From assembly GCA_022664555.1 (NCBI GenBank), contig GCA_022664555.1_4839.1: a stretch of 23,185 bases of DNA. One strand, written 5' to 3'. This document shows, one piece after another, positions 3,663 to 23,185 of this stretch. Origin of the DNA: Escherichia coli. GTDB taxonomy: Bacteria; Pseudomonadota; Gammaproteobacteria; Enterobacterales; Enterobacteriaceae. Position 1 is the first letter of the stretch, and each line of letters opens with the position of its first letter. The translations under genes were made by a program, and so were the position numbers. Under the pieces are notes generated by a model. That model was not told where the DNA came from. It saw only the letters and a program-made list of their open reading frames with translations, and made no database searches.

Positions 3663-3860
3663 TTAATAGAGTTTGGTGTATGTTTGTTTGACACACATAA
3701 AAGTGCTCATATATCTTTGTGATTCCACCAAATGAGCAAACGCCTTTTCTGCCGAACTCTTGTCCTTGAACTCCAGAACGGAAGTGTCTACTGCAATAGA
3801 TTGATTCTTCCCGTCGAAGCCAACGGTTGTCACTAAGATCTTATAATCTTGGGTTTCCAT
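3663..3860 (-). CDS. hypothetical protein (65 aa)
   Basis: Track ORF 3663..3932 trimmed to the ATG at 3860 (METQDYKIL...), preceded by AAGGA SD. The 5' extension in the track would read through the terminator hairpin. Confidence 0.55.
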   Translation of the reverse strand: METQDYKILVTTVGFDGKNQSIAVDTSVLEFKDKSSAEKAFAHLVESQRYMSTFMCVKQTYTKLY

Positions 3861-3871
3861 GATGTATATCC

Positions 3872-3917
3872 TTGCAAAAAAGAAAGGGGAACGGGCTAAT
3901 AATAACCCATTCCCCTT
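3872..3917 (-). terminator. intrinsic terminator, probably bidirectional
   Basis: GGGGAACGGG...CCCATTCCCC stem (3886-3895 / 3906-3915, one mismatch). Minus strand has TTTCTTTTTT after it; plus strand has TTTATTGAAGG. Confidence 0.6.
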
Positions 3918-3943
3918 TATTGAAGGAAGCAACCCCAGTCAGA

Positions 3944-4111
3944 TTACTTTTTCTTCAGCTCGTCCAGTTTGGCTTCGATCTGGTCCAGAATCTCTTTGCC
4001 TTTCTGAACAATCACTTCACCATCTTGCGCGTGTTTACGGAAGACCAGAGCACCAGCGATGAAGCCGACAACCGCGCTAGGAAGCGCATAAACCAGCAGA
4101 TCTTGTAACAT
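3944..4111 (-). CDS. small membrane protein (55 aa)
   Basis: Hand-translated ORF below the track cutoff: MLQDLLVYALPSAVVGFIAGALVFRKHAQDGEVIVQKGKEILDQIEAKLDELKKK. ATG at 4111-4109, TAA at 3946-3944, GAGGA SD about 8 nt upstream. One predicted TM helix. Confidence 0.5.
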   Translation of the reverse strand: MLQDLLVYALPSAVVGFIAGALVFRKHAQDGEVIVQKGKEILDQIEAKLDELKKK

Positions 4112-4116
4112 GATAA

Positions 4117-4141
4117 TATCCTCGCTTTATAGGCGAGGATA
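4117..4141 (-). promoter_or_regulatory. 9-bp hairpin that contains the SD of CDS 3944..4111
   Basis: TATCCTCGC / GCGAGGATA perfect inverted repeat with a 7-nt loop, sitting exactly between the stop of CDS 4148..5383 and the ATG at 4111. The GAGGA of the downstream SD lies inside the stem. Confidence 0.4.
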
Positions 4142-4147
4142 TTTATA

Positions 4148-5383
4148 TCAGCGTTTCAAGAGTGTCATGAGGTTGACGCTGCTGGACTTCGACTTGTCCT
4201 CAACCTTGCGCACAGGCATCTTCAGGTTCGTACATACCTCGGATGGTTCCCAGCGCGTACCCTTTTGCAGGTGCCAGATATGCAGAGGAACACCAGTCTC
4301 AAAGAACACAGGCATCTTCCACTTCTGGACGCCTGGAACGTGCCCTGCAGGAGCCTTTTCGCACAACAGGGTATCTGGCAGCCAGAGCGAACGGGCTTCC
4401 CAGAGCGCTGCGCAGGAGTATTCAGGCCAGACGCGTTCCATGTAGTCTATCTCATCCCAGGTACGCTCTGCGTCCCACCCGATGTAACGGGTATTCTTCA
4501 GTCGGAAGAATTTCTTCAGCCAACAAGCACCGGAGGTTTCAAAGTTCAGACGGTTGATGAACGTCAGATGCCCAAACTCAGCCACACAATCCTGGAACGC
4601 CTGCTCAAGGTCGGCCTCAAGGATGTCACACTCTTCATCCGTGATAGGACAACCGTTGATCTTTTTCTTCCCGTGTTTAGTCACCCAATCGTCACGGTTG
4701 GATAAGAACGCCGCGCCATTACGGTTGGACTCGCTTCCATCACGATCACGCAGCATGAAGCCAGGGACGTCAATGGTGTATTCGTTTCCGAATACCATGT
4801 TCAGGGCTTCCAGGAAGTTCCAGGCGCTCAGGCGACCGAAGTATTTCCAGGACATCGCCGTGTCCCACAGCTGGGTGAATTGTTCTGTCTTATCGATGCA
4901 CACCAACATCCCACGGAAAGCGTCATATTGAGTACGGCCAGCCAGCCAGTCAATATAGGACTGTACACACGGAATCATCTTGGACTTGCGGTAGCGACAG
5001 TCGGTATCGAATCGCATGCGATCAAAGTTCAGATTATACCAATCAGAGAAGCGCTGCATCTCTTCCTTAGACTGAGGCGGCACAGGGAACTCACTGTAGA
5101 TAGTCCACGGTCCGACAGCGTTATAGCAACAACCCCACAGGAATGCCATCCAGATCTTGCGCTCGACTTTCTGTTCGAGGCTGATGCCTTCAGTGGCTTC
5201 GATCGCATAGTCCATCAGACGCATCTGCTGGTTGTGCTCTTCTGTGTAGGACAGCGCCTCCACCCAAGCCTTGAGCAAGTACATGCGATTCTCAGGCTTG
5301 CGATAATCAACAGCTAGGTCAATCGGGTACTTCCATTCAGCCGGAGGCGTATAGCCCGTCGGCATTTTAGATAAATGATGCAT
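4148..5383 (-). CDS. hypothetical protein, Trp/Cys-rich (411 aa)
   Basis: Long uninterrupted track ORF; ATG at 5383 with GAGGAAG SD. No motif I can assign with confidence. Confidence 0.65.
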   Translation of the reverse strand: MHHLSKMPTGYTPPAEWKYPIDLAVDYRKPENRMYLLKAWVEALSYTEEHNQQMRLMDYAIEATEGISLEQKVERKIWMAFLWGCCYNAVGPWTIYSEFPVPPQSKEEMQRFSDWYNLNFDRMRFDTDCRYRKSKMIPCVQSYIDWLAGRTQYDAFRGMLVCIDKTEQFTQLWDTAMSWKYFGRLSAWNFLEALNMVFGNEYTIDVPGFMLRDRDGSESNRNGAAFLSNRDDWVTKHGKKKINGCPITDEECDILEADLEQAFQDCVAEFGHLTFINRLNFETSGACWLKKFFRLKNTRYIGWDAERTWDEIDYMERVWPEYSCAALWEARSLWLPDTLLCEKAPAGHVPGVQKWKMPVFFETGVPLHIWHLQKGTRWEPSEVCTNLKMPVRKVEDKSKSSSVNLMTLLKR

Positions 5384-5744
5384 CTTTCGCTTCCTCTTCA
5401 GGAGCCACAGCTTCAGGCTCAGGAGCCAGCTGAATATCTTCCGGCTTCACGAACCCCATCGGACGTTCCCACATATCGATAAAGCGACGGTCAGCGGTCA
5501 CGAACCACAGACGGGCTGCAGTGTGAGTCTTACCCGAGATGAACATCTGAGCATTCGTCTGGGTACGGAACGGAGCAGCCTGCAACCACTTGCCGAAGTC
5601 TTTGGACGACGGATTGGCATTCAGCTGGAACTGAGGGATGACGCAGTTCTTTTCAGGAATCAGGCGCACGGCAGTAATGTGCTTGGCGTTTCCGGTGTAG
5701 TCAATCGCGACAGCCACAGCATCGCGAGGGATTTGAATTTTCAT
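5367..5744 (-). CDS. hypothetical protein (125 aa)
   Basis: Track ORF 5367..5879 trimmed to the ATG at 5744 (MKIQIPRD...), which has AAGGAA SD 5 nt upstream and an ATGA overlap with the stop of CDS 5741..5938. Confidence 0.55.
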   Translation of the reverse strand: MKIQIPRDAVAVAIDYTGNAKHITAVRLIPEKNCVIPQFQLNANPSSKDFGKWLQAAPFRTQTNAQMFISGKTHTAARLWFVTADRRFIDMWERPMGFVKPEDIQLAPEPEAVAPEEEAKDASFI

Positions 5745-5940: not shown

Positions 5941-6846
5941 TCACCCCTTCTTCATCAGGTCAAGGAGAGAGCGCGACGCTGCCTTCGGTGCTTCTGGCTG
6001 GGCGCTCGCCTTGGTTTTAGTTTTGGATGCCTTCTGCGGCTTCTCAGGCACTCTGTGCGCCAAAGGATCATCACCGCCGACCTCACGGGTCATTGGATTG
6101 GTTTCACAGTAGGCATAAAAATCTTTGATGTCAAGGTTAACCGCGCCGATATCCATCTGATAAGCGATAGCATCCCCGACAACCCAAAGAGGGGCATCAA
6201 ACGGCATGACTGCCAGTTCGCTACGTGGATCCATTTCCCACTCATTCTGAGAAGGTTTTGTATACTCAACATCCTGCCCACTGTACACGTCTGCCAAAAC
6301 GTTCCACCCCAGTGCCAACATTTCGGCCTTCGACTTCTCAAACTCCTTGTAGTAAGATTCGTTGCGCGACCAGCCGGAGTTCCCTGCTTCTTTACCAGAG
6401 CGACCACGGATACGAGCATCGTACTGATAGCGGTCGGGGTACGCAAAGTACAGCAGCGCCAATGATTCAATCGGATAGTTCTTGAACATCCATTCAGGAC
6501 GCCATTTGTCCGATAGCATGAGAGGTTCTCCCTCGCACACCAGAGTGTATCCCTGAACCAACCAGCACTTGATTAGATCACGAGCAATATCGCCTGAGCC
6601 TGTAGCAGCATGGATTGCATCCATTGAAGTCCAGGAAGCCAGGCCGGACTTGTTAGACACGGTGTACTGTCCAACGAAGATTAACTTCAGCTCTCCGAAC
6701 TTCAGGCCAAACGGGCGAGTCTTGTCACCAACGGTGTAGGTCAGTTCGGTAGGCTCCAGCTTAGTGCGCAGCCATTCGATGAACTGGACCACTCTCGTAC
6801 CCTTGCCCGTGGCCGAGGTGCCTTTCACTACAATTATTTTAGCCAT
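5941..6846 (-). CDS. P-loop nucleotide kinase-like protein (301 aa)
   Basis: Walker-A motif near the N-terminus (IIVVKGTSATGKGT, GxxxxGKGT type as in guanylate/nucleoside-monophosphate kinases). GGAGAA SD before the ATG at 6846. No HAD DxDxT motif, so not a T4 Pnk-type fused kinase-phosphatase. Confidence 0.5.
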   Translation of the reverse strand: MAKIIVVKGTSATGKGTRVVQFIEWLRTKLEPTELTYTVGDKTRPFGLKFGELKLIFVGQYTVSNKSGLASWTSMDAIHAATGSGDIARDLIKCWLVQGYTLVCEGEPLMLSDKWRPEWMFKNYPIESLALLYFAYPDRYQYDARIRGRSGKEAGNSGWSRNESYYKEFEKSKAEMLALGWNVLADVYSGQDVEYTKPSQNEWEMDPRSELAVMPFDAPLWVVGDAIAYQMDIGAVNLDIKDFYAYCETNPMTREVGGDDPLAHRVPEKPQKASKTKTKASAQPEAPKAASRSLLDLMKKG

Positions 6847-7525
6847 TTAATATTCTCCAACCGAGACATGTTTTAGCCCTACCTTTCAAGAGATTCGTTA
6901 TATTACCGGAAGGGAGGCCATATTGAAGTTCCATGTCGCATCTTCTTAACTCAACGATGCGACCATCTTTGTGCTGCCATTTGTAAATCTTTTCATCGCG
7001 ACCAGGACCAATGTCTATCAGACCAAGAGCATGCAGCCTCTTCCTAGTTTCCCCTCCACGCGTTTGAGATTCAGAGGAAGGTCTTGGTGGTTTGGGGATC
7101 TTCCCTTCTGACATCAATTTGCTTATAATCTTACCCTTTCTGGCTTGTGCTTCAGGGGTGAGTCTTGGTGGAGGTTTAATCTTACCTTCAGCGATCAAAC
7201 GTTTGCGGGTTGCGGCGCTCTTTGCGGATGACTCTGGCGTGGCCAATGGAGGCTTCCCACCCCCGACGACCATGTTATAACACCACCCAGAGTCAAGGAT
7301 CTCCTGGCAGACCAGTTCAGACTCTATCTGAAGGATAACCGAATCTTTCCCTCGGAACAGAACTTCAAACTTGAACTGGTCTTCACCGTATTTCTTGAAC
7401 GCTCGTTGTAATGCAATGCTCCCCTGACCACACTTATGCTCAGTCAACCGCCTATCCGGTTCTGAGGTGACACCGATATAGAATTTATGATTGACGAGAT
7501 TCGTGATCAGGTAGAGCGACAGCAT
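6839..7525 (-). mobile_element. GIY-YIG homing endonuclease gene (Seg-like, 228 aa)
   Basis: N-terminal LYLITNLVNHKFYIGVTS carries both halves of the GIY-YIG motif, with downstream Arg/Glu catalytic-region residues. The C-terminal half has tandem basic proline-rich repeats (GKIKPPPRLTPEAQARKGK / GKIPKPPRPSSESQTRGGETRKR), consistent with a DNA-binding domain. Overlaps both neighbours (TAATG at 7523-7527; 8 nt with the kinase-like gene). Confidence 0.85.
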
Positions 7526-13589: not shown

Positions 13590-13620
13590 TAAAGAAAGGG
13601 GCTTAACGCCCCTTTTCTTA
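13590..13620. terminator. bidirectional intrinsic terminator between convergent genes
   Basis: AAAGGGGC-TTAAC-GCCCCTTT stem (GGGGC 13598-13602 / GCCCC 13608-13612, extended by A-T pairs) with T-tracts on both strands. Confidence 0.7.
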
Positions 13621-14076
13621 TTCTTCCCAGAAGTCTTCGTCGTCCCCGACAGCAGCCAGTTCCGTGTCCAGTTCTTCATCGGTAAACGGTGGCAGCACCC
13701 CGTTCTGAATCAGATAATCCATCTCATCGTCTTCCAGCTGCAGGTCGGTGGCAATATACAGCGCTCCACTGCCTTCTTCGTCCGTCTCGATGCTGTATGA
13801 AGTGTATGGCACTCCATTCACTGTAATGATGATAGAGGTCGGATCCTTGGGATCTACGTGCGCCTCGAACGGCACACCATCAATCGGTGCATCTTCCAGG
13901 AAGGTAGCAAGTGCTACGGCGGCGCGGACAACATCAGTGCCTTCAACGCCCGCATAGATCTCTTCCGCGCCTGTCTCTTCACGATCAAACAGCTCAATCG
14001 TGATACCGTCTTGAACACCAGTCCATACAGGGATGTCATTGGTGTATTCTGATTCAAACAATTTGGAGGTTGGCAT
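13618..14076 (-). CDS. hypothetical acidic protein (152 aa)
   Basis: Track ORF; ATG at 14076 with GAGGAA SD 5 nt upstream. Strongly Asp/Glu-rich. Confidence 0.6.
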   Translation of the reverse strand: MPTSKLFESEYTNDIPVWTGVQDGITIELFDREETGAEEIYAGVEGTDVVRAAVALATFLEDAPIDGVPFEAHVDPKDPTSIIITVNGVPYTSYSIETDEEGSGALYIATDLQLEDDEMDYLIQNGVLPPFTDEELDTELAAVGDDEDFWEE

Positions 14077-14101: not shown

Positions 14102-14212
14102 TATGGGGTATTTAGGCTTCCCGCTTGGCGAGGCCTGGTTTGTACAGGGCACCTCTAGGAAATATTGGAGGAAGGTTTTCATAGATACCCCACACGGATT
14201 GTATGGGGTATT
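14102..14212 (-). promoter_or_regulatory. intergenic array of ATACCCC(A) repeats, with a late-promoter-like CTAAATAC
   Basis: On the minus strand AATACCCCATA occurs twice (plus 14102-14113 and 14202-14212), with an inverted copy (plus 14185-14194) that forms an 8-bp hairpin ATACCCCA / TGGGGTAT (14185-14192 / 14203-14210). The proximal copy reads CTAAATACCCCATAT about 30 nt upstream of the ATG at 14076. Confidence 0.35.
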
Positions 14213-14221
14213 CAGGAGGGA

Positions 14222-15415
14222 TCAGGAAGGGGTGAAGTCGTTTACAGGAACTGTTTCAGGGATAGCCAGCTCAGGGCATGCTGCCTTCATCGACTCGATG
14301 TACGGCTTGCTACCCACAATCCAGAACAGAGTGTTCTCATTGAGCAACTCGGGCTTGTGTTGCTGAACCCAGGTCATGACCTTGCCTTCATAGCGAGGAT
14401 GCAACTCAATATCGCCCCACTGATATTCCATCAGGTCATTATAACGAACCCAATTAGTGGTATGAAGATCCCAATGGTGTACCTCAAAGCGAGGAAGCAC
14501 GACCTCTGGCTCTTCCTTCTGCCTGATACCACTTAGGAGGCCAGCCAGCGAAACGCTCTTAGAGGCATGCTGAAGCTCCTTCTTGCCGTGTACATAGTCT
14601 GGGTTGTCGTGATAGCGACGGGTAAAGTCGACAATGTGCGGCAGATTGGCATGTTTGCCGATGATGCGCAGACGACTCTCGATAAAGTCCAGACGGTTCG
14701 GACCGATGCCAATCAGATACACACGCTTCAGATTAGGCTTCGGATGCATTGCCAGCCCGGTCAGGATGCTTGTGCAAGAGTTGCACGATCCGGCTGGGAT
14801 GATCAGGTCAGTAATGTGATCAGGAATGTTGGCAACCTGCTCGCCACCCAACATATGGAACCCAGCAATGCGCTCAGGGGAGTGGGCTGTATGGTCGAGG
14901 GTGATACCATACTCCAGATAATACGCCTTTGGATTCTGTTGTTCGATCAACTTCTTACAGCGCGGCTGGATGGTGCTGTTGTAACCCGAGCCGACGAAGT
15001 TGAACTCACTACCAAACCAGGCTGACATTACCACCATTTCATGGTTCATACAGGTGGTGGGTTTGGTCGCGCCGAGCACAGTAGTTGTCTTGCCGCCGAA
15101 GTGCCGAGAGACTGCTGTCGCCATAGGGGACTGCGGACTACCAACGACAGTACCATGGATGATGTCAGGGGAGCCTCCGGCCTTGAGGTGCTCAACCATC
15201 AACCAGATGGCCTGGCGGAGTTTGCTGCCATTGATGCCCTGCTTGGCGTTGGCATAGTTAGACAGCGGCGCAAAATAATCTTCACGCTTGAACCAGACCT
15301 GCTGGTTGGTTTCGGGATTGACGACAAGTTCGCACGGGGTGTGCTTGTAGAGATAGTCTTCCCAGTGAACCAGATTGCGGTCGAGGGAAAGGGTATCGAA
15401 AATGGTCTTGTTCAT
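14222..15415 (-). CDS. PLP-dependent enzyme, ACC deaminase / D-cysteine desulfhydrase-like fold (397 aa)
   Basis: Track ORF 14222..15436 trimmed to the ATG at 15415 (GGAGA SD, spacing 7). WFKREDY...GINGSKLRQAIWLMVEHLKAGG...IIHGTVVGSPQSPMATAVS matches the pattern YIKRDD...GGNKLRKLEFLV...LIT.GAIQSNH of that family as recalled, including the candidate PLP-binding Lys. Confidence 0.55.
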   Translation of the reverse strand: MNKTIFDTLSLDRNLVHWEDYLYKHTPCELVVNPETNQQVWFKREDYFAPLSNYANAKQGINGSKLRQAIWLMVEHLKAGGSPDIIHGTVVGSPQSPMATAVSRHFGGKTTTVLGATKPTTCMNHEMVVMSAWFGSEFNFVGSGYNSTIQPRCKKLIEQQNPKAYYLEYGITLDHTAHSPERIAGFHMLGGEQVANIPDHITDLIIPAGSCNSCTSILTGLAMHPKPNLKRVYLIGIGPNRLDFIESRLRIIGKHANLPHIVDFTRRYHDNPDYVHGKKELQHASKSVSLAGLLSGIRQKEEPEVVLPRFEVHHWDLHTTNWVRYNDLMEYQWGDIELHPRYEGKVMTWVQQHKPELLNENTLFWIVGSKPYIESMKAACPELAIPETVPVNDFTPS

Positions 15416-15423
15416 TCTATTTT

Positions 15424-15463
15424 CTCCTGTAGACATTGGTTTATCATAGTGTATCTACAGGAG
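15424..15463 (-). promoter_or_regulatory. 10-bp inverted repeat that sequesters the SD of CDS 14222..15415
   Basis: CTCCTGTAGA (15424-15433) and TCTACAGGAG (15454-15463) are perfect reverse complements separated by 20 nt. On the mRNA the 3' arm contains the GGAG SD; the upstream in-frame ATG at 15436 lies in the loop. Confidence 0.45.
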
Positions 15464-15485
15464 TATAGAAAAGGAGAATCTCGGC

Positions 15486-16261: not shown

Positions 16262-16295
16262 GGGATAAAAAGAAAGCCGGATAGGATATCCGGCT
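16262..16295 (-). terminator. intrinsic terminator at the downstream (minus-strand) end of the tRNA region
   Basis: AGCCGGATA-GGA-TATCCGGCT perfect 9-bp stem (16275-16295) followed on the minus strand by TTCTTTTTATCCC (plus 16262-16274). Confidence 0.7.
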
Positions 16296-16898: not shown

Positions 16899-17802
16899 AA
16901 ATTATTGTGTGACCAACCAAGGACTGTCAACCCTTTATCCCGTTTGTGCATGATCAGTTCATGCAGGCCTCTTTGTGCTGCCTCACGGCATGCGCTTCTG
17001 TTGGTCATTGGCTTACACTGTGGCCTCACAACAGGCGTTTATTTTTCCAGGGCTTTCCACTTGCAAGTCTTGACCATACAGGGATACGGGCTTACAAGAT
17101 CGGGTTGGACACAACTTTGATGGCTCTGGTATTAAAGATCCCGCGTCACCCATAGACATGGTTTATAAATCCAGAGCCATCAAAGTTGCAACCAATGTCG
17201 CAACTCGCAGCTTCCATGCAGAAGAAACTTGTCCTCTAACGCTCGGACCAAACGAGGCTGGCTGGTTGATTCAGAGCCGCTGGTTGCTCCAGCAAGCATG
17301 GGTTGATAGCCCGGCAACATAGAATCACCCAAAGTTGAAGAACACTCAGTGGTACAAGCCAGGGATACCAATTTCAGGTCCTTTGCGAGTTCTTTAAATG
17401 CTCTTCATTTTGTGAACTTGAGAATACTACGCCTGTCTCGGGTTTCCCCTTAGTTCGGCCTCCCAGTCCTCGCCGCGCCGGGTAGCTAACCCTGATGGCT
17501 CGTCTGCTACTGAGTTCTTCTTGGTGCCCACCAGTGTCCGGAATGTGTAGGCATCGCAATCTGCAAGGCATGGTCTATTTCACCCAATGCTCTCTCAAGT
17601 TCACAAATCGAAGTGCCCTGACTCAACAGTATAGCCCAATATGCTGTTATCGTCCACCGGATTGGCCACCCACTTCGTAGATCAACCTTTGGGTTTAAGA
17701 TAAATTGTCAAGGCACTTCGATTTGTGTGCCCTTCACCTGCCAGGGATCAGGGCTGATGGCAAGACTTCGCTCACATCTTTCAAGATACTCGTGAGAATA
17801 TC

Positions 17803-17830: not shown

Positions 17831-18803
17831 TCGAACCCAAATGCTTGGCCAGCGCTGACCTTACATCCCATCTGACTTAGGCAACCCACTCCCAGCCCCA
17901 CAACACTCACTACGGTTAAGATTATTGCGTATGTTGTATGGTCTTGCTGGTCACAACTGAAAGGGCACTTAACAGAAGATAGGTCTGATTGCCTCGGATG
18001 ATTTCTCAGTAGCCTAAATGCCCTTACATGTTGTGTGCCCATTATTAATCACAGCGGGCCACTGCGCCGAATTTGGTGATGAGGAATCGGAAGACCTCAC
18101 TGACTTATAGGCTGTTACGCCGCCATCAGAACTTCGGAATCATTAGCAGTTATTTGCTTGGTCAGTTTCTAAAAACCCGCAAAGTCACGCACAACGAAAA
18201 CGAAAACCTGTTTGAGCACAAGACACCATGTCCTGGGTTCACATCGAAGTGTTTGTCTAATGCCCAAACAGCTTTTCGCTTCAGTGGGTTAACTATACTT
18301 TGTAACCCGTTATTGATAAAACCTTTTATTTTTGTTGGCGAGGGTATCACCATCGATTTACCGGAACTTACGCATCCGGCCTCGCCTGTTGGTGATCCTT
18401 CGAATCCGGGAAGATCAGTAGGAACTATGAATCAAGTTAATTCAACCAACAGGAACCTTGTTGCCCTTTGACGCAACATTATGAACCCTCTATGGAAGAC
18501 TCATAATGTTGTGGCGTGATGGAGATTAGCGCCCCCGACCTCCCCTTATACGTTGGTGTCGACTTGCCAACAGGGTGCTCTCTGATTCTGAGCTAATCAC
18601 GCTACAACAGGGAGTTTCGTTCTCCGACGGTCAGTGCGTCCACCGACACCAGCGAGGTTGATATTACGCCTCTATTCGTCACGGTGCCCTGAGACTGGGC
18701 TTTCCTGGTTTCGGGTTCCAGCCCTACTCCCACCGCGCTATTCGCCTCGTGTTTAATACTTTACTACAGCCCAGCTAATTTGAAAAGTCCTCTCCTCTTT
18801 GAG

Positions 18804-19895: not shown

Positions 19896-19903
19896 GCTAA
19901 ATA
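19896..19903 (+). promoter_or_regulatory. late-promoter-like CTAAATAT upstream of the gp6-like gene
   Basis: CTAAATAT lies 41 nt upstream of the ATG at 19944 and resembles the T4 late promoter core TATAAATA. The same CTAAATA core precedes CDS 13618..14076 on the minus strand. Confidence 0.3.
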
Positions 19904-21722: not shown

Positions 21723-22560
21723 TAACGGACACAATGGGGTGAAATATGAAACCCCATTGTTTTACCAGAATGAATTCCCAGTATTCATCGAGTTTATGGA
21801 TACGTTCTTCAACTGGTTGTATCGCCAGCAGGGATTCACCGAAGAGGAGATCTTGGCGTATCTGGCAGACACTGGTGGTTGGGTGAACCCAAATACGGAT
21901 CAGTCTCCTATTGAGCAGTTGATTGACATCAAGAAGCGCAAGACGCCAGGTGCTGAGGCCAAAGACTTCTTGGAAGACAAGTTCCTGACGCGCACGTTTG
22001 AGAACATGATGGCGCTAGACTTCGAAGATTTGCTGGACGTGGACGGTCGGCCATTAATCTCAATGGAAGACAAGAACGAACGCATCGACGATTGGTATGC
22101 TGATTTTGGATTCCAGAGAACGGTTGATAAATCCTTCCTGGAGTTCGGGAAGTTTGTGCCAGTTGGTTCGGACAGTTTGGTGACTTCAGATGGAGACACT
22201 CTCTCTGTGTATGTCGAGGGAACTGAACGCCGGACACTGGACCATGTACGCTGGTTGAAGTTACTTAAACACATTTATCGCATTCGCGGGACGAAGAAAG
22301 CGATTGAATTGTTCTTCTGGATTTACTTTGGTTGCCCAGTGAGTGTGTATTATCCCAAGGAAGCAATTGGTGGCCTGGATGACAACTTTGAATGTGACGG
22401 CGCGACAGGAATGCGTGACGATTACTACTATGATGAATTCACGTATGTGATAAGAGTTCCTGGCAACGTATCTGATTTTGAAGGTGTGTTTGATCGCGTC
22501 TTCCGTCAGCATTTCCATCCTGCTGGGTTTACTGTATTCCTAGAAAGTTCAAGGAGTTAA
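21706..22560 (+). CDS. putative baseplate protein (gpI-like position, 284 aa)
   Basis: ATG at 21706 with GGAGGTG SD 4 nt upstream, overlapping the gp6-like gene by 17 nt. Assigned by position between the gp6/J-like gene and the tail fibre gene; no independent motif. Confidence 0.45.
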   Translation: MSKDLNNGHNGVKYETPLFYQNEFPVFIEFMDTFFNWLYRQQGFTEEEILAYLADTGGWVNPNTDQSPIEQLIDIKKRKTPGAEAKDFLEDKFLTRTFENMMALDFEDLLDVDGRPLISMEDKNERIDDWYADFGFQRTVDKSFLEFGKFVPVGSDSLVTSDGDTLSVYVEGTERRTLDHVRWLKLLKHIYRIRGTKKAIELFFWIYFGCPVSVYYPKEAIGGLDDNFECDGATGMRDDYYYDEFTYVIRVPGNVSDFEGVFDRVFRQHFHPAGFTVFLESSRS

Positions 22561-22562
22561 AA

Positions 22563-23185
22563 ATGGCCGATTTTCTGAGTCGATACACAGGTCAGCAGAT
22601 TGATGCAATCCTTTCTTCTGTTGACGATAAAATAAGCAAGACTGATGTTGTCAACGATTTCGCTGTTGATGATCCGTTGTTCCCTCCTTCAGCTCATTTG
22701 ACATACGAGCTGAAGCGTTCTGTGGATAATATCTACGACACACTGGAAAACAAAGTGATCCGCACCGACGGTGGTGAACAAACGATCAACGGGAACAAGA
22801 CTTTTGCTGCGTTGTTGACAGCCAACGGCGGCCTGGCTGTTCCGGCTGGAAAGAAACTTTCTATCGCGGATGAGCCTACGATAGCGACAGATGGTGTTAA
22901 CCTGAGCATGTTGAGAAAGCATGGTGTCAGTGAAGACACTACCCCACCTGGTTCTGGTTTGGCTGGGGAGTTGTTGACATCCGGATATTACAAATTCAAT
23001 TTGGATTTCACCAAATTGTCTGCGTATACCGGATCAACGCTGCCGACTTCAATCCCAGTACAAACAGATTCTGGAGCGCGTTATTGGACAATGACTGCAT
23101 TTTTTGATGCGTTGTTTGCAGACAACCGATTTGGCGGATATGTGACAACGACAGCGTATGATGCGGATATGCTAAGTTTAGAGTC
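22563..23185 (+). CDS. tail fibre protein, N-terminal part (runs off the window)
   Basis: ATG at 22563 with AAGGAG SD 6 nt upstream; open frame to the window end. Contains a GGEQTINGNKTFAALLTANGGLAV segment resembling the GGQTINGTL...GG motif of T4 gp12 and other fibre proteins. Confidence 0.7.
   Translation, partial: MADFLSRYTGQQIDAILSSVDDKISKTDVVNDFAVDDPLFPPSAHLTYELKRSVDNIYDTLENKVIRTDGGEQTINGNKTFAALLTANGGLAVPAGKKLSIADEPTIATDGVNLSMLRKHGVSEDTTPPGSGLAGELLTSGYYKFNLDFTKLSAYTGSTLPTSIPVQTDSGARYWTMTAFFDALFADNRFGGYVTTTAYDADMLSLE

Follow-up and report, generated by a model that had tools for sequence, protein, structure and literature searches.

The 36-nt gap between two minus-strand genes of an Ackermannviridae phage holds a hairpin that pairs the ribosome binding site (RBS) of a 55-aa protein gene, and the 5' arm of this hairpin overlaps an exact match to the T4 late-promoter consensus. 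It is probable, in our view, that a late promoter is here built into a hairpin that masks the RBS, an element which would work as a temporal translational gate of the type found at the e, soc, 49 and I-TevI genes of T4. The window, that is, the whole stretch of 23,185 nt analysed here, belongs to an Ackermannviridae (ViI-like) phage according to sequence matches. It is matched by 271 phage records, the closest being Enterobacter phage fGh-Ecl02 (ON212266.1), with 98% identity to the window, and this closest relative (153,282 bp, 192 CDS) was used for the whole-genome scans.

Upstream of the gap lies a 411-aa gene (5383..4148, minus strand) for an amino acid:DNA transferase/aGPT-PPlase clade 2 protein of thymidine hypermodification. 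Its product matches Pfam PF18724 (ADDT) with an E value of 1.3e-59 and also phrog_3271, and the records of relatives label the orthologue aGPT-PPlase clade 2. This PPlase gene is the last enzyme gene in a tightly packed minus-strand run of thymidine-hypermodification and nucleotide-metabolism genes, and it ends with the stop codon TGA at 4150..4148 (-). The gap separates this stop from the ATG, at 4111 (-), of the small gene (4111..3944, -), which encodes a 55-aa protein with an N-terminal transmembrane helix and a charged helical C-terminus. The small ORF is a real gene, since it matches phrog_3879 (E 4e-31; a family of unknown function in PHROGs) and its differences among relatives are biased to the third codon position (133:24:14 at codon positions 3:1:2). 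A tblastn search with the 55-aa protein returned 227 phage records; the comparison with Pfam gave a sub-threshold DUF883_C match and nothing else, and a large protein search retrieved nine close relatives, none with an informative name. The transcription unit is closed by an intrinsic terminator at 3918..3883 (-), made of a 16-pair stem followed by a T run, whose orthologue is annotated in phages Marshall and LIMEstone1. A terminator scan over 3700-5600 called this as the sole terminator-like site, 190 nt downstream of the hairpin, and called none between the upstream operon and the 55-aa gene. The DNA-modification function of the upstream operon and the absence of such a terminator are the grounds on which we presume its expression to be early or middle.

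On the minus strand, the sequence across the gap is TGA-TATAAATATCCTCGC-CTATAAA-GCGAGGATATT-ATC-ATG. A first-pass annotation of the window had described a perfect 9-bp stem (4141..4133 / 4125..4117) in the gap between the two minus-strand genes, with the Shine-Dalgarno (SD) sequence of the 55-aa gene in its 3' arm. Each of these points was borne out, and the stem proved to be longer, with 11 perfect Watson-Crick pairs (AATATCCTCGC/GCGAGGATATT, 4115-4143) with a loop of 7 nt. More specifically, the 5' arm AAUAUCCUCGC occupies 4143..4133 (-), the loop CUAUAAA 4132..4126 (-) and the 3' arm GCGAGGAUAUU 4125..4115 (-), the latter containing the SD GAGGA at 4123..4119 (-), 7 nt ahead of the ATG. When folded in an 81-nt context, the 11-bp stem forms the core of a longer, imperfect helix on the read-through mRNA (4161..4101, -), in which the stop codon region pairs with the AUG region and the AUG is also paired. 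The minimum free energy of this context is -25.9 kcal/mol, with a z-score of -5.0, and none of 200 dinucleotide shuffles folds as well. The computed probability that the SD is unpaired, P(unpaired), is 0.000 on the read-through mRNA and rises to 0.54-0.61 when the RNA starts at 4136..4134.

A chance inverted repeat without function would have to account for several coincidences. Perfect stems of at least 11 bp occur twice in the window, against 0.17 expected from shuffles (for stems of at least 9 bp, seven against 1.4), the fold z-score is -5, and the site coincides with the single late-promoter consensus of the window. In addition, the arrangement is conserved across genera, and a Tevenvirinae homologue carries it with a different stem. 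The orthologous sequences are too alike to reveal covariation, which leaves some room for chance, but we regard this explanation as extremely improbable. A search of the whole window against Rfam, together with a permissive scan of the locus, found two tRNAs only, and the hairpin gave no match to Rfam covariance models at gathering score or at E values up to 1. We also set aside an RNase III site at the hairpin, as its stem is just 11 bp, which we take to be short for a substrate of this enzyme. Other perfect 9-11-bp inverted repeats of the window lie at 18474-18511, 21731-21760, 22687-22715 and 16275-16295.

The first 8 nt of the gap (4147..4140, -) are TATAAATA, the exact T4 late-promoter consensus, located 28 nt ahead of the ATG. 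The box shares 4 nt with the hairpin, its last four being the first four of the 5' arm. A search of both strands of the window finds it once, where 0.25 copies are expected, and that one copy lies in sense orientation within the 36-nt gap; its TAAATA core is the Ackermannviridae late box. Since the T4 late box spans positions -13..-6 (PMC2988020), late transcription would by analogy start inside the 5' arm, the predicted start being the G at 4134 (-), 6 nt past the box, with 4136..4132 as the plausible range. The promoter is already predicted in the annotation of a relative: the orthologous TAAATA of Dickeya phage LIMEstone1 (HE600015.1), at ORF190-ORF191, is annotated as 'minus_10_signal, putative late promoter'. 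The first interpretation of the locus is thus partly supported, being right about the masking of the SD and having missed the T4 late promoter that overlaps the 5' arm. As for earlier work, a 2011 paper stated that the late consensus of the ViI family had not been identified, and another paper searched for promoters with TATAAATA, allowing one mismatch. In the literature that we searched, we did not find a description of the link between the hairpin and the late box or of its frequency in Ackermannviridae; for transcript 5' ends or expression at this locus or in this phage family, the same search returned in-silico predictions only.

Taken together, the box and the stem suggest the following mechanism. 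Because no terminator precedes it, the 55-aa gene, at the 3' end of the presumed early/middle operon, would be carried on read-through mRNA. On this RNA, the 11-bp stem and the outer helix would pair the SD and the AUG and so exclude 30S subunits. Late in infection, RNA polymerase with a gp55-type sigma factor, gp33 and the gp45 clamp would recognise TATAAATA and initiate about 6 nt past it, around 4134; the late transcript, lacking the 5' arm, would leave the SD single-stranded, and the 55-aa protein would be made only late. Homologues of gp55, gp33 and gp45 are annotated in ON212266.1 and LIMEstone1, outside the window itself. From the folding model, we infer that masking of the SD would control translation of the 55-aa gene.

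A structured RBS close to an upstream stop codon is also the setting of translational coupling, known from the RNA phage MS2, in which a ribosome unmasks the RBS. Here, the small gene would be silent until a ribosome finishing the PPlase ORF melts the hairpin, and its product would always be made in fixed proportion to PPlase. The MS2-type arrangement is indeed present, with the SD in a stem near the upstream stop codon. As the PPlase stop ends only 4 nt ahead of the 11-bp stem, some ribosome-mediated opening is possible; the outer helix contains the stop codon itself, and the SD is freed (P 0.57) once 11 nt or more beyond the stop are kept single-stranded. However, with 5-7 nt held open, as far as a terminating ribosome may realistically reach, the GC-rich core persists and SD accessibility is at most 0.004, while 9 nt give 0.19. 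Freeing the SD thus takes an opening of at least 9-11 nt, and by this computation the reach would probably be insufficient. In contrast to MS2-type coupling, the stem here also contains a promoter, and coupling leaves the invariant TATAAATA box unexplained. Moreover, the same geometry is present at genes with no nearby upstream ORF, such as the endolysin (184-nt gap) and tailspike genes (78-79-nt gaps), at gp14, whose upstream neighbour is on the opposite strand, and at a homologue of the small gene that follows a tRNA gene in phage FBB1. Coupling is therefore unlikely to be what the hairpin is for.

Another reading is that the hairpin serves to attenuate or terminate transcription of the PPlase operon, or to stabilise the 3' end of its mRNA, and that it masks the SD incidentally. 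An A/U-rich stretch does follow the 3' arm, and in LIMEstone1 two paralogous late-box hairpins, 54223-54250 and 92858-92885 of HE600015.1, were annotated by the authors as factor-independent terminators. These two overlap the starts of the endolysin gene and of ORF129, each lies directly after an annotated late promoter, and both resemble stems that mask an SD more than they resemble terminators. At the locus studied here, the scan that called the strong terminator at 3918..3883 does not call the 4115-4143 hairpin, whose tail is AUAUUAUCAUG, with no T run. In phages without the small gene, the PPlase gene uses the 3918..3883-type terminator directly, and the 3' arm coincides with the SD throughout the late-box class. 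We consider a primary role in termination or 3'-end stability very unlikely.

Terminator-like hairpins drew attention to a further repeated sequence. The window contains eight copies of TTCAATAA (1079, 3917, 9012, 12932, 12953, 18993, 19428 and 19632), against 0.78 expected, and none of 100 shuffles reaches eight. In the window and in the relative, the copies are typically intergenic and lie just 5' of terminator-like hairpins, which often have a TATAAT-like hexamer in the loop (as at 3924..3883); LIMEstone1 annotations likewise overlap promoters with terminators. These sites look like combined terminator/promoter modules. Separately, at the DNA ligase start of ON212266.1 (129083), an 11-bp perfect stem (CCAGGGTTATA/TATAACCCTGG) lies upstream of the gene with its 3' arm ending 9 nt before the ATG, and TATAAT spans the junction of 5' arm and loop, placing a promoter-like hexamer in a stem near the RBS.

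We then compared the gap among phages that carry the small gene. The box TATAAATA is invariant in 15 related loci, and the only changes in the stem are from G:C to G:U, at two pairs, so that in many relatives the stem is weaker than in the window. Such changes are compatible with the structure but are not evidence of covariation; in the orthologous alignment, no pair changed on both sides, and shuffles gave the observed values. Klebsiella Taipeivirus phages lack the small gene, the box and the hairpin together, and their PPlase gene abuts the terminator, so that gene, box and hairpin behave as an indel cassette. Outside the family, Erwinia phage FBB1 (Tevenvirinae) encodes a homologue of the 55-aa protein (46% identity), located after a tRNA cluster and preceded by TATAAATA and a different 8-bp SD-masking stem, CUCUUGUU/AACAGGAG, for which the computed SD accessibility switches from 0.17 to 0.94. 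A tblastn search with this homologue returned itself and no other match. The homologue of Serratia phage phiMAM1 has CTAAATAA at the site, and accessibility goes from 0.003 to 0.19.

A further idea is that the repeat is a protein-binding site, either a palindromic operator in the DNA or a RegA-type repressor site in the RNA at the AU-rich AUG region. A RegA homologue is encoded in this phage family, and the sequence around the AUG is AU-rich. Nevertheless, we found no repeated operator sequence, and the paralogous stems are wholly different in sequence while their complementarity is kept, which favours an RNA structure. A protein-binding site is, in our judgement, highly improbable.

The frequency of late boxes was examined over the whole genome of the relative. 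Exact TATAAATA is present in five copies in ON212266.1, four of which are intergenic, in sense orientation and 24-35 nt before a start codon; these belong to the present locus, gp54 and the orthologues of LIMEstone1 ORF080 and ORF093, both MS-confirmed virion proteins. The shorter TAAATA occurs at 56 sites. Nearly half of them (26/56) are non-coding, in sense orientation and located 23-42 nt ahead of a start codon, where the 7.9% non-coding fraction of the genome would lead one to expect about two, and 14 of these 26 start-proximal boxes precede annotated structural genes. The commonest late-type box in Ackermannviridae is (A/G)CTAAATA(C), not TATAAATA; with five copies per genome and (A/G)CTAAATA as the common box, exact TATAAATA was rejected as the general late consensus of the family. 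The authors of the LIMEstone1 record annotated 33 putative late promoters (PMC3296691). Two more boxes of the window may be recorded here. TAAATA at 14109-14114 (-) lies before gene 13618..14076, the LIMEstone1 orthologue of which, ORF174, is an MS-confirmed virion protein, and has no strong stem, and TAAATA at 19898-19903 (+) precedes the baseplate gene gp6, whose leader is weakly masked in the relative (0.08 to 0.34).

Masked ribosome binding sites proved to be associated with these boxes, as seen by partition-function folding of the starts of ON212266.1 genes. An SD with P(unpaired) below 0.05 was found at 11 of 191 genes, eight of which have a late-type TAAATA box; in other words, 8/28 box genes are masked to this degree vs 3/163 others (Mann-Whitney p 1.3e-5). 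This genome-wide check shows that the SD-in-stem arrangement reported by the first-pass annotation is not a chance feature. At the genes concerned, the 5' arm is the box or the bases directly after it and the SD is in the 3' arm, and about one third of the start-proximal boxes provide the 5' arm for a stem that masks the SD. When the RNA is made to start 6 nt past the box, the median SD accessibility of box genes, otherwise 0.18, reaches the 0.42 of ordinary genes. The genes with both box and SD-masking stem are the present one, three tailspike genes, the neck protein gene gp14, the endolysin gene, a RuvC-like resolvase gene and a structural-protein gene at 17146, the LIMEstone1 orthologue of which, ORF173, is an MS-confirmed virion protein. 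Their stems are unlike in sequence and alike in geometry, as illustrated by CCCCAU/AUGGGG, CCUCUGCA/UGUGGAGG and GCCCAUA/UAUGGGC, and the RuvC stem differs between ON212266.1 and LIMEstone1 by an inserted G:C pair, a compensatory change. The same box-stem arrangement is present at 12 of the 33 late promoters annotated in LIMEstone1, including those of the endolysin gene, the RuvC gene and the gene for an intron homing endonuclease. The latter, I-LimII (139325-139362), belongs to an intron in the DNA polymerase gene and has a late box and a 9-bp stem (AUACUCUUU/AAGGAGUAU) over its SD. Since the tailspike genes with hairpins are downstream of other late genes, the class as a whole cannot be explained solely by a block on early read-through.

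A second stem of the window, at 15424-15463 (-), had been put forward in the first reading as another case of an RBS locked in secondary structure, with a suggested shared control mechanism. It is a real SD-masking stem, with 10 perfect pairs (12 with one G:U) that mask AGGAG (P(unpaired) 0.001), but it is not the same element, as no TAAATA box is present there. The stem is part of an intergenic stretch of about 60 nt before a PLP-dependent enzyme gene; between Kuttervirus, Taipeivirus and Limestonevirus this stretch hardly varies, while the coding sequence on its flanks diverges. A sigma70-like TATACT (15467..15462) abuts its 5' arm, and in our computation a start 5-9 nt past TATACT frees AGGAG (0.75-0.87). 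With its different class of promoter, the 15424-15463 stem can at best be an analogue, perhaps an RBS mask in which a non-late promoter is embedded; the true relatives of the 4115-4143 hairpin lie elsewhere in the genome, at the genes for the endolysin, the RuvC-like resolvase, the tailspikes and the neck protein.

Two points of gene annotation emerged alongside. In the ORF list, the PLP-enzyme ORF begins at an ATG (15436) that falls inside the hairpin. The likelier start is the ATG at 15415..15413 (-), in frame and seven codons downstream, which is preceded by an SD and matches the start annotated in the relative (397 aa). The other point concerns 5941-7525, where the window has two ORFs, of 228 aa and 301 aa, and the corresponding region of ON212266.1 (8964-10562) is annotated with just one, a 532-aa 'putative homing endonuclease'. 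For the 301-aa ORF, the matches were to a 'guanylate kinase' PHROG and to an 'endonuclease' PHROG, in the latter case to its C-terminal part. The discrepancy could reflect a fusion or split, or a difference of annotation.

The nearest known parallel is found in phage T4, where long early transcripts of e, soc, 49 and I-TevI form a helix that sequesters the SD (PMC3014915). In the leader of gene e, which codes for lysozyme, late promoters lie inside the SD-sequestering hairpin (McPheeters et al. 1986, reviewed in PMC3014915). As at the locus described here, the TATAAATA late promoter of gene e specifies the helix's 5' strand, the SD is in the 3' strand, and the gene is a late one downstream of earlier-transcribed genes, a position that is presumed in our case. 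The long early transcripts of gene e are untranslatable and the late ones, starting inside the helix, are translated; the folding computations predict the same behaviour here. The two loci differ in that gene e has two promoters and the present gene one, in the families concerned (Straboviridae and Ackermannviridae) and in the product, here a 55-aa membrane protein, and the endolysin gene of Ackermannviridae carries the same architecture.

The same logic applies to T4 soc, gene 49 (endonuclease VII) and intron-encoded I-TevI, and to mobE of Aeromonas phage Aeh1, which are late genes of small size or accessory role in early/middle units. Gene 49 has its parallel in the Ackermannviridae RuvC-like resolvase gene, a functional analogue of gp49 with late box and SD-masking stem, and I-TevI in the intron endonuclease I-LimII of LIMEstone1, similarly equipped. 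The genes and stems of soc, 49, I-TevI and mobE are not homologous to those of the present locus, and the architecture alone is common to them. The late variant of Aeh1, with (a/g)C at -13/-12, gives (A/G)CTAAATA, the same as the commonest Ackermannviridae box, whereas the present site has T4's canonical form, TATAAATA.

Extending the late-promoter gate from this locus to the whole family is a possibility that we put forward tentatively and with some doubt: the -10 element of the late box might serve systematically as the 5' arm of RBS masks in Ackermannviridae, as a genome-wide insulation scheme. Such use is seen at about one third of late promoters, among them those of late genes that follow other late genes, and many late cistrons may be translatable only from transcripts of their own promoter. 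The same hairpins may also act as weak terminators or as 3'-end protectors of upstream RNA, and the 55-aa gene may be a portable late-only cassette that uses the resident terminator, present also in a Tevenvirinae phage. If true, this would go beyond the handful of special cases known in T4.

In conclusion, reading the hairpin as a late gate accounts for an oddly structured RBS and would place the 55-aa protein in the late class. The results suggest that Ackermannviridae, phages employed in biocontrol and reporter-phage engineering, make heavy use of promoter-embedded RBS masks, and such masks matter for the insertion of payload genes and for the prediction of expression timing. Some of the hairpins that published genomes list as terminators overlapping gene starts are probably translational gates.
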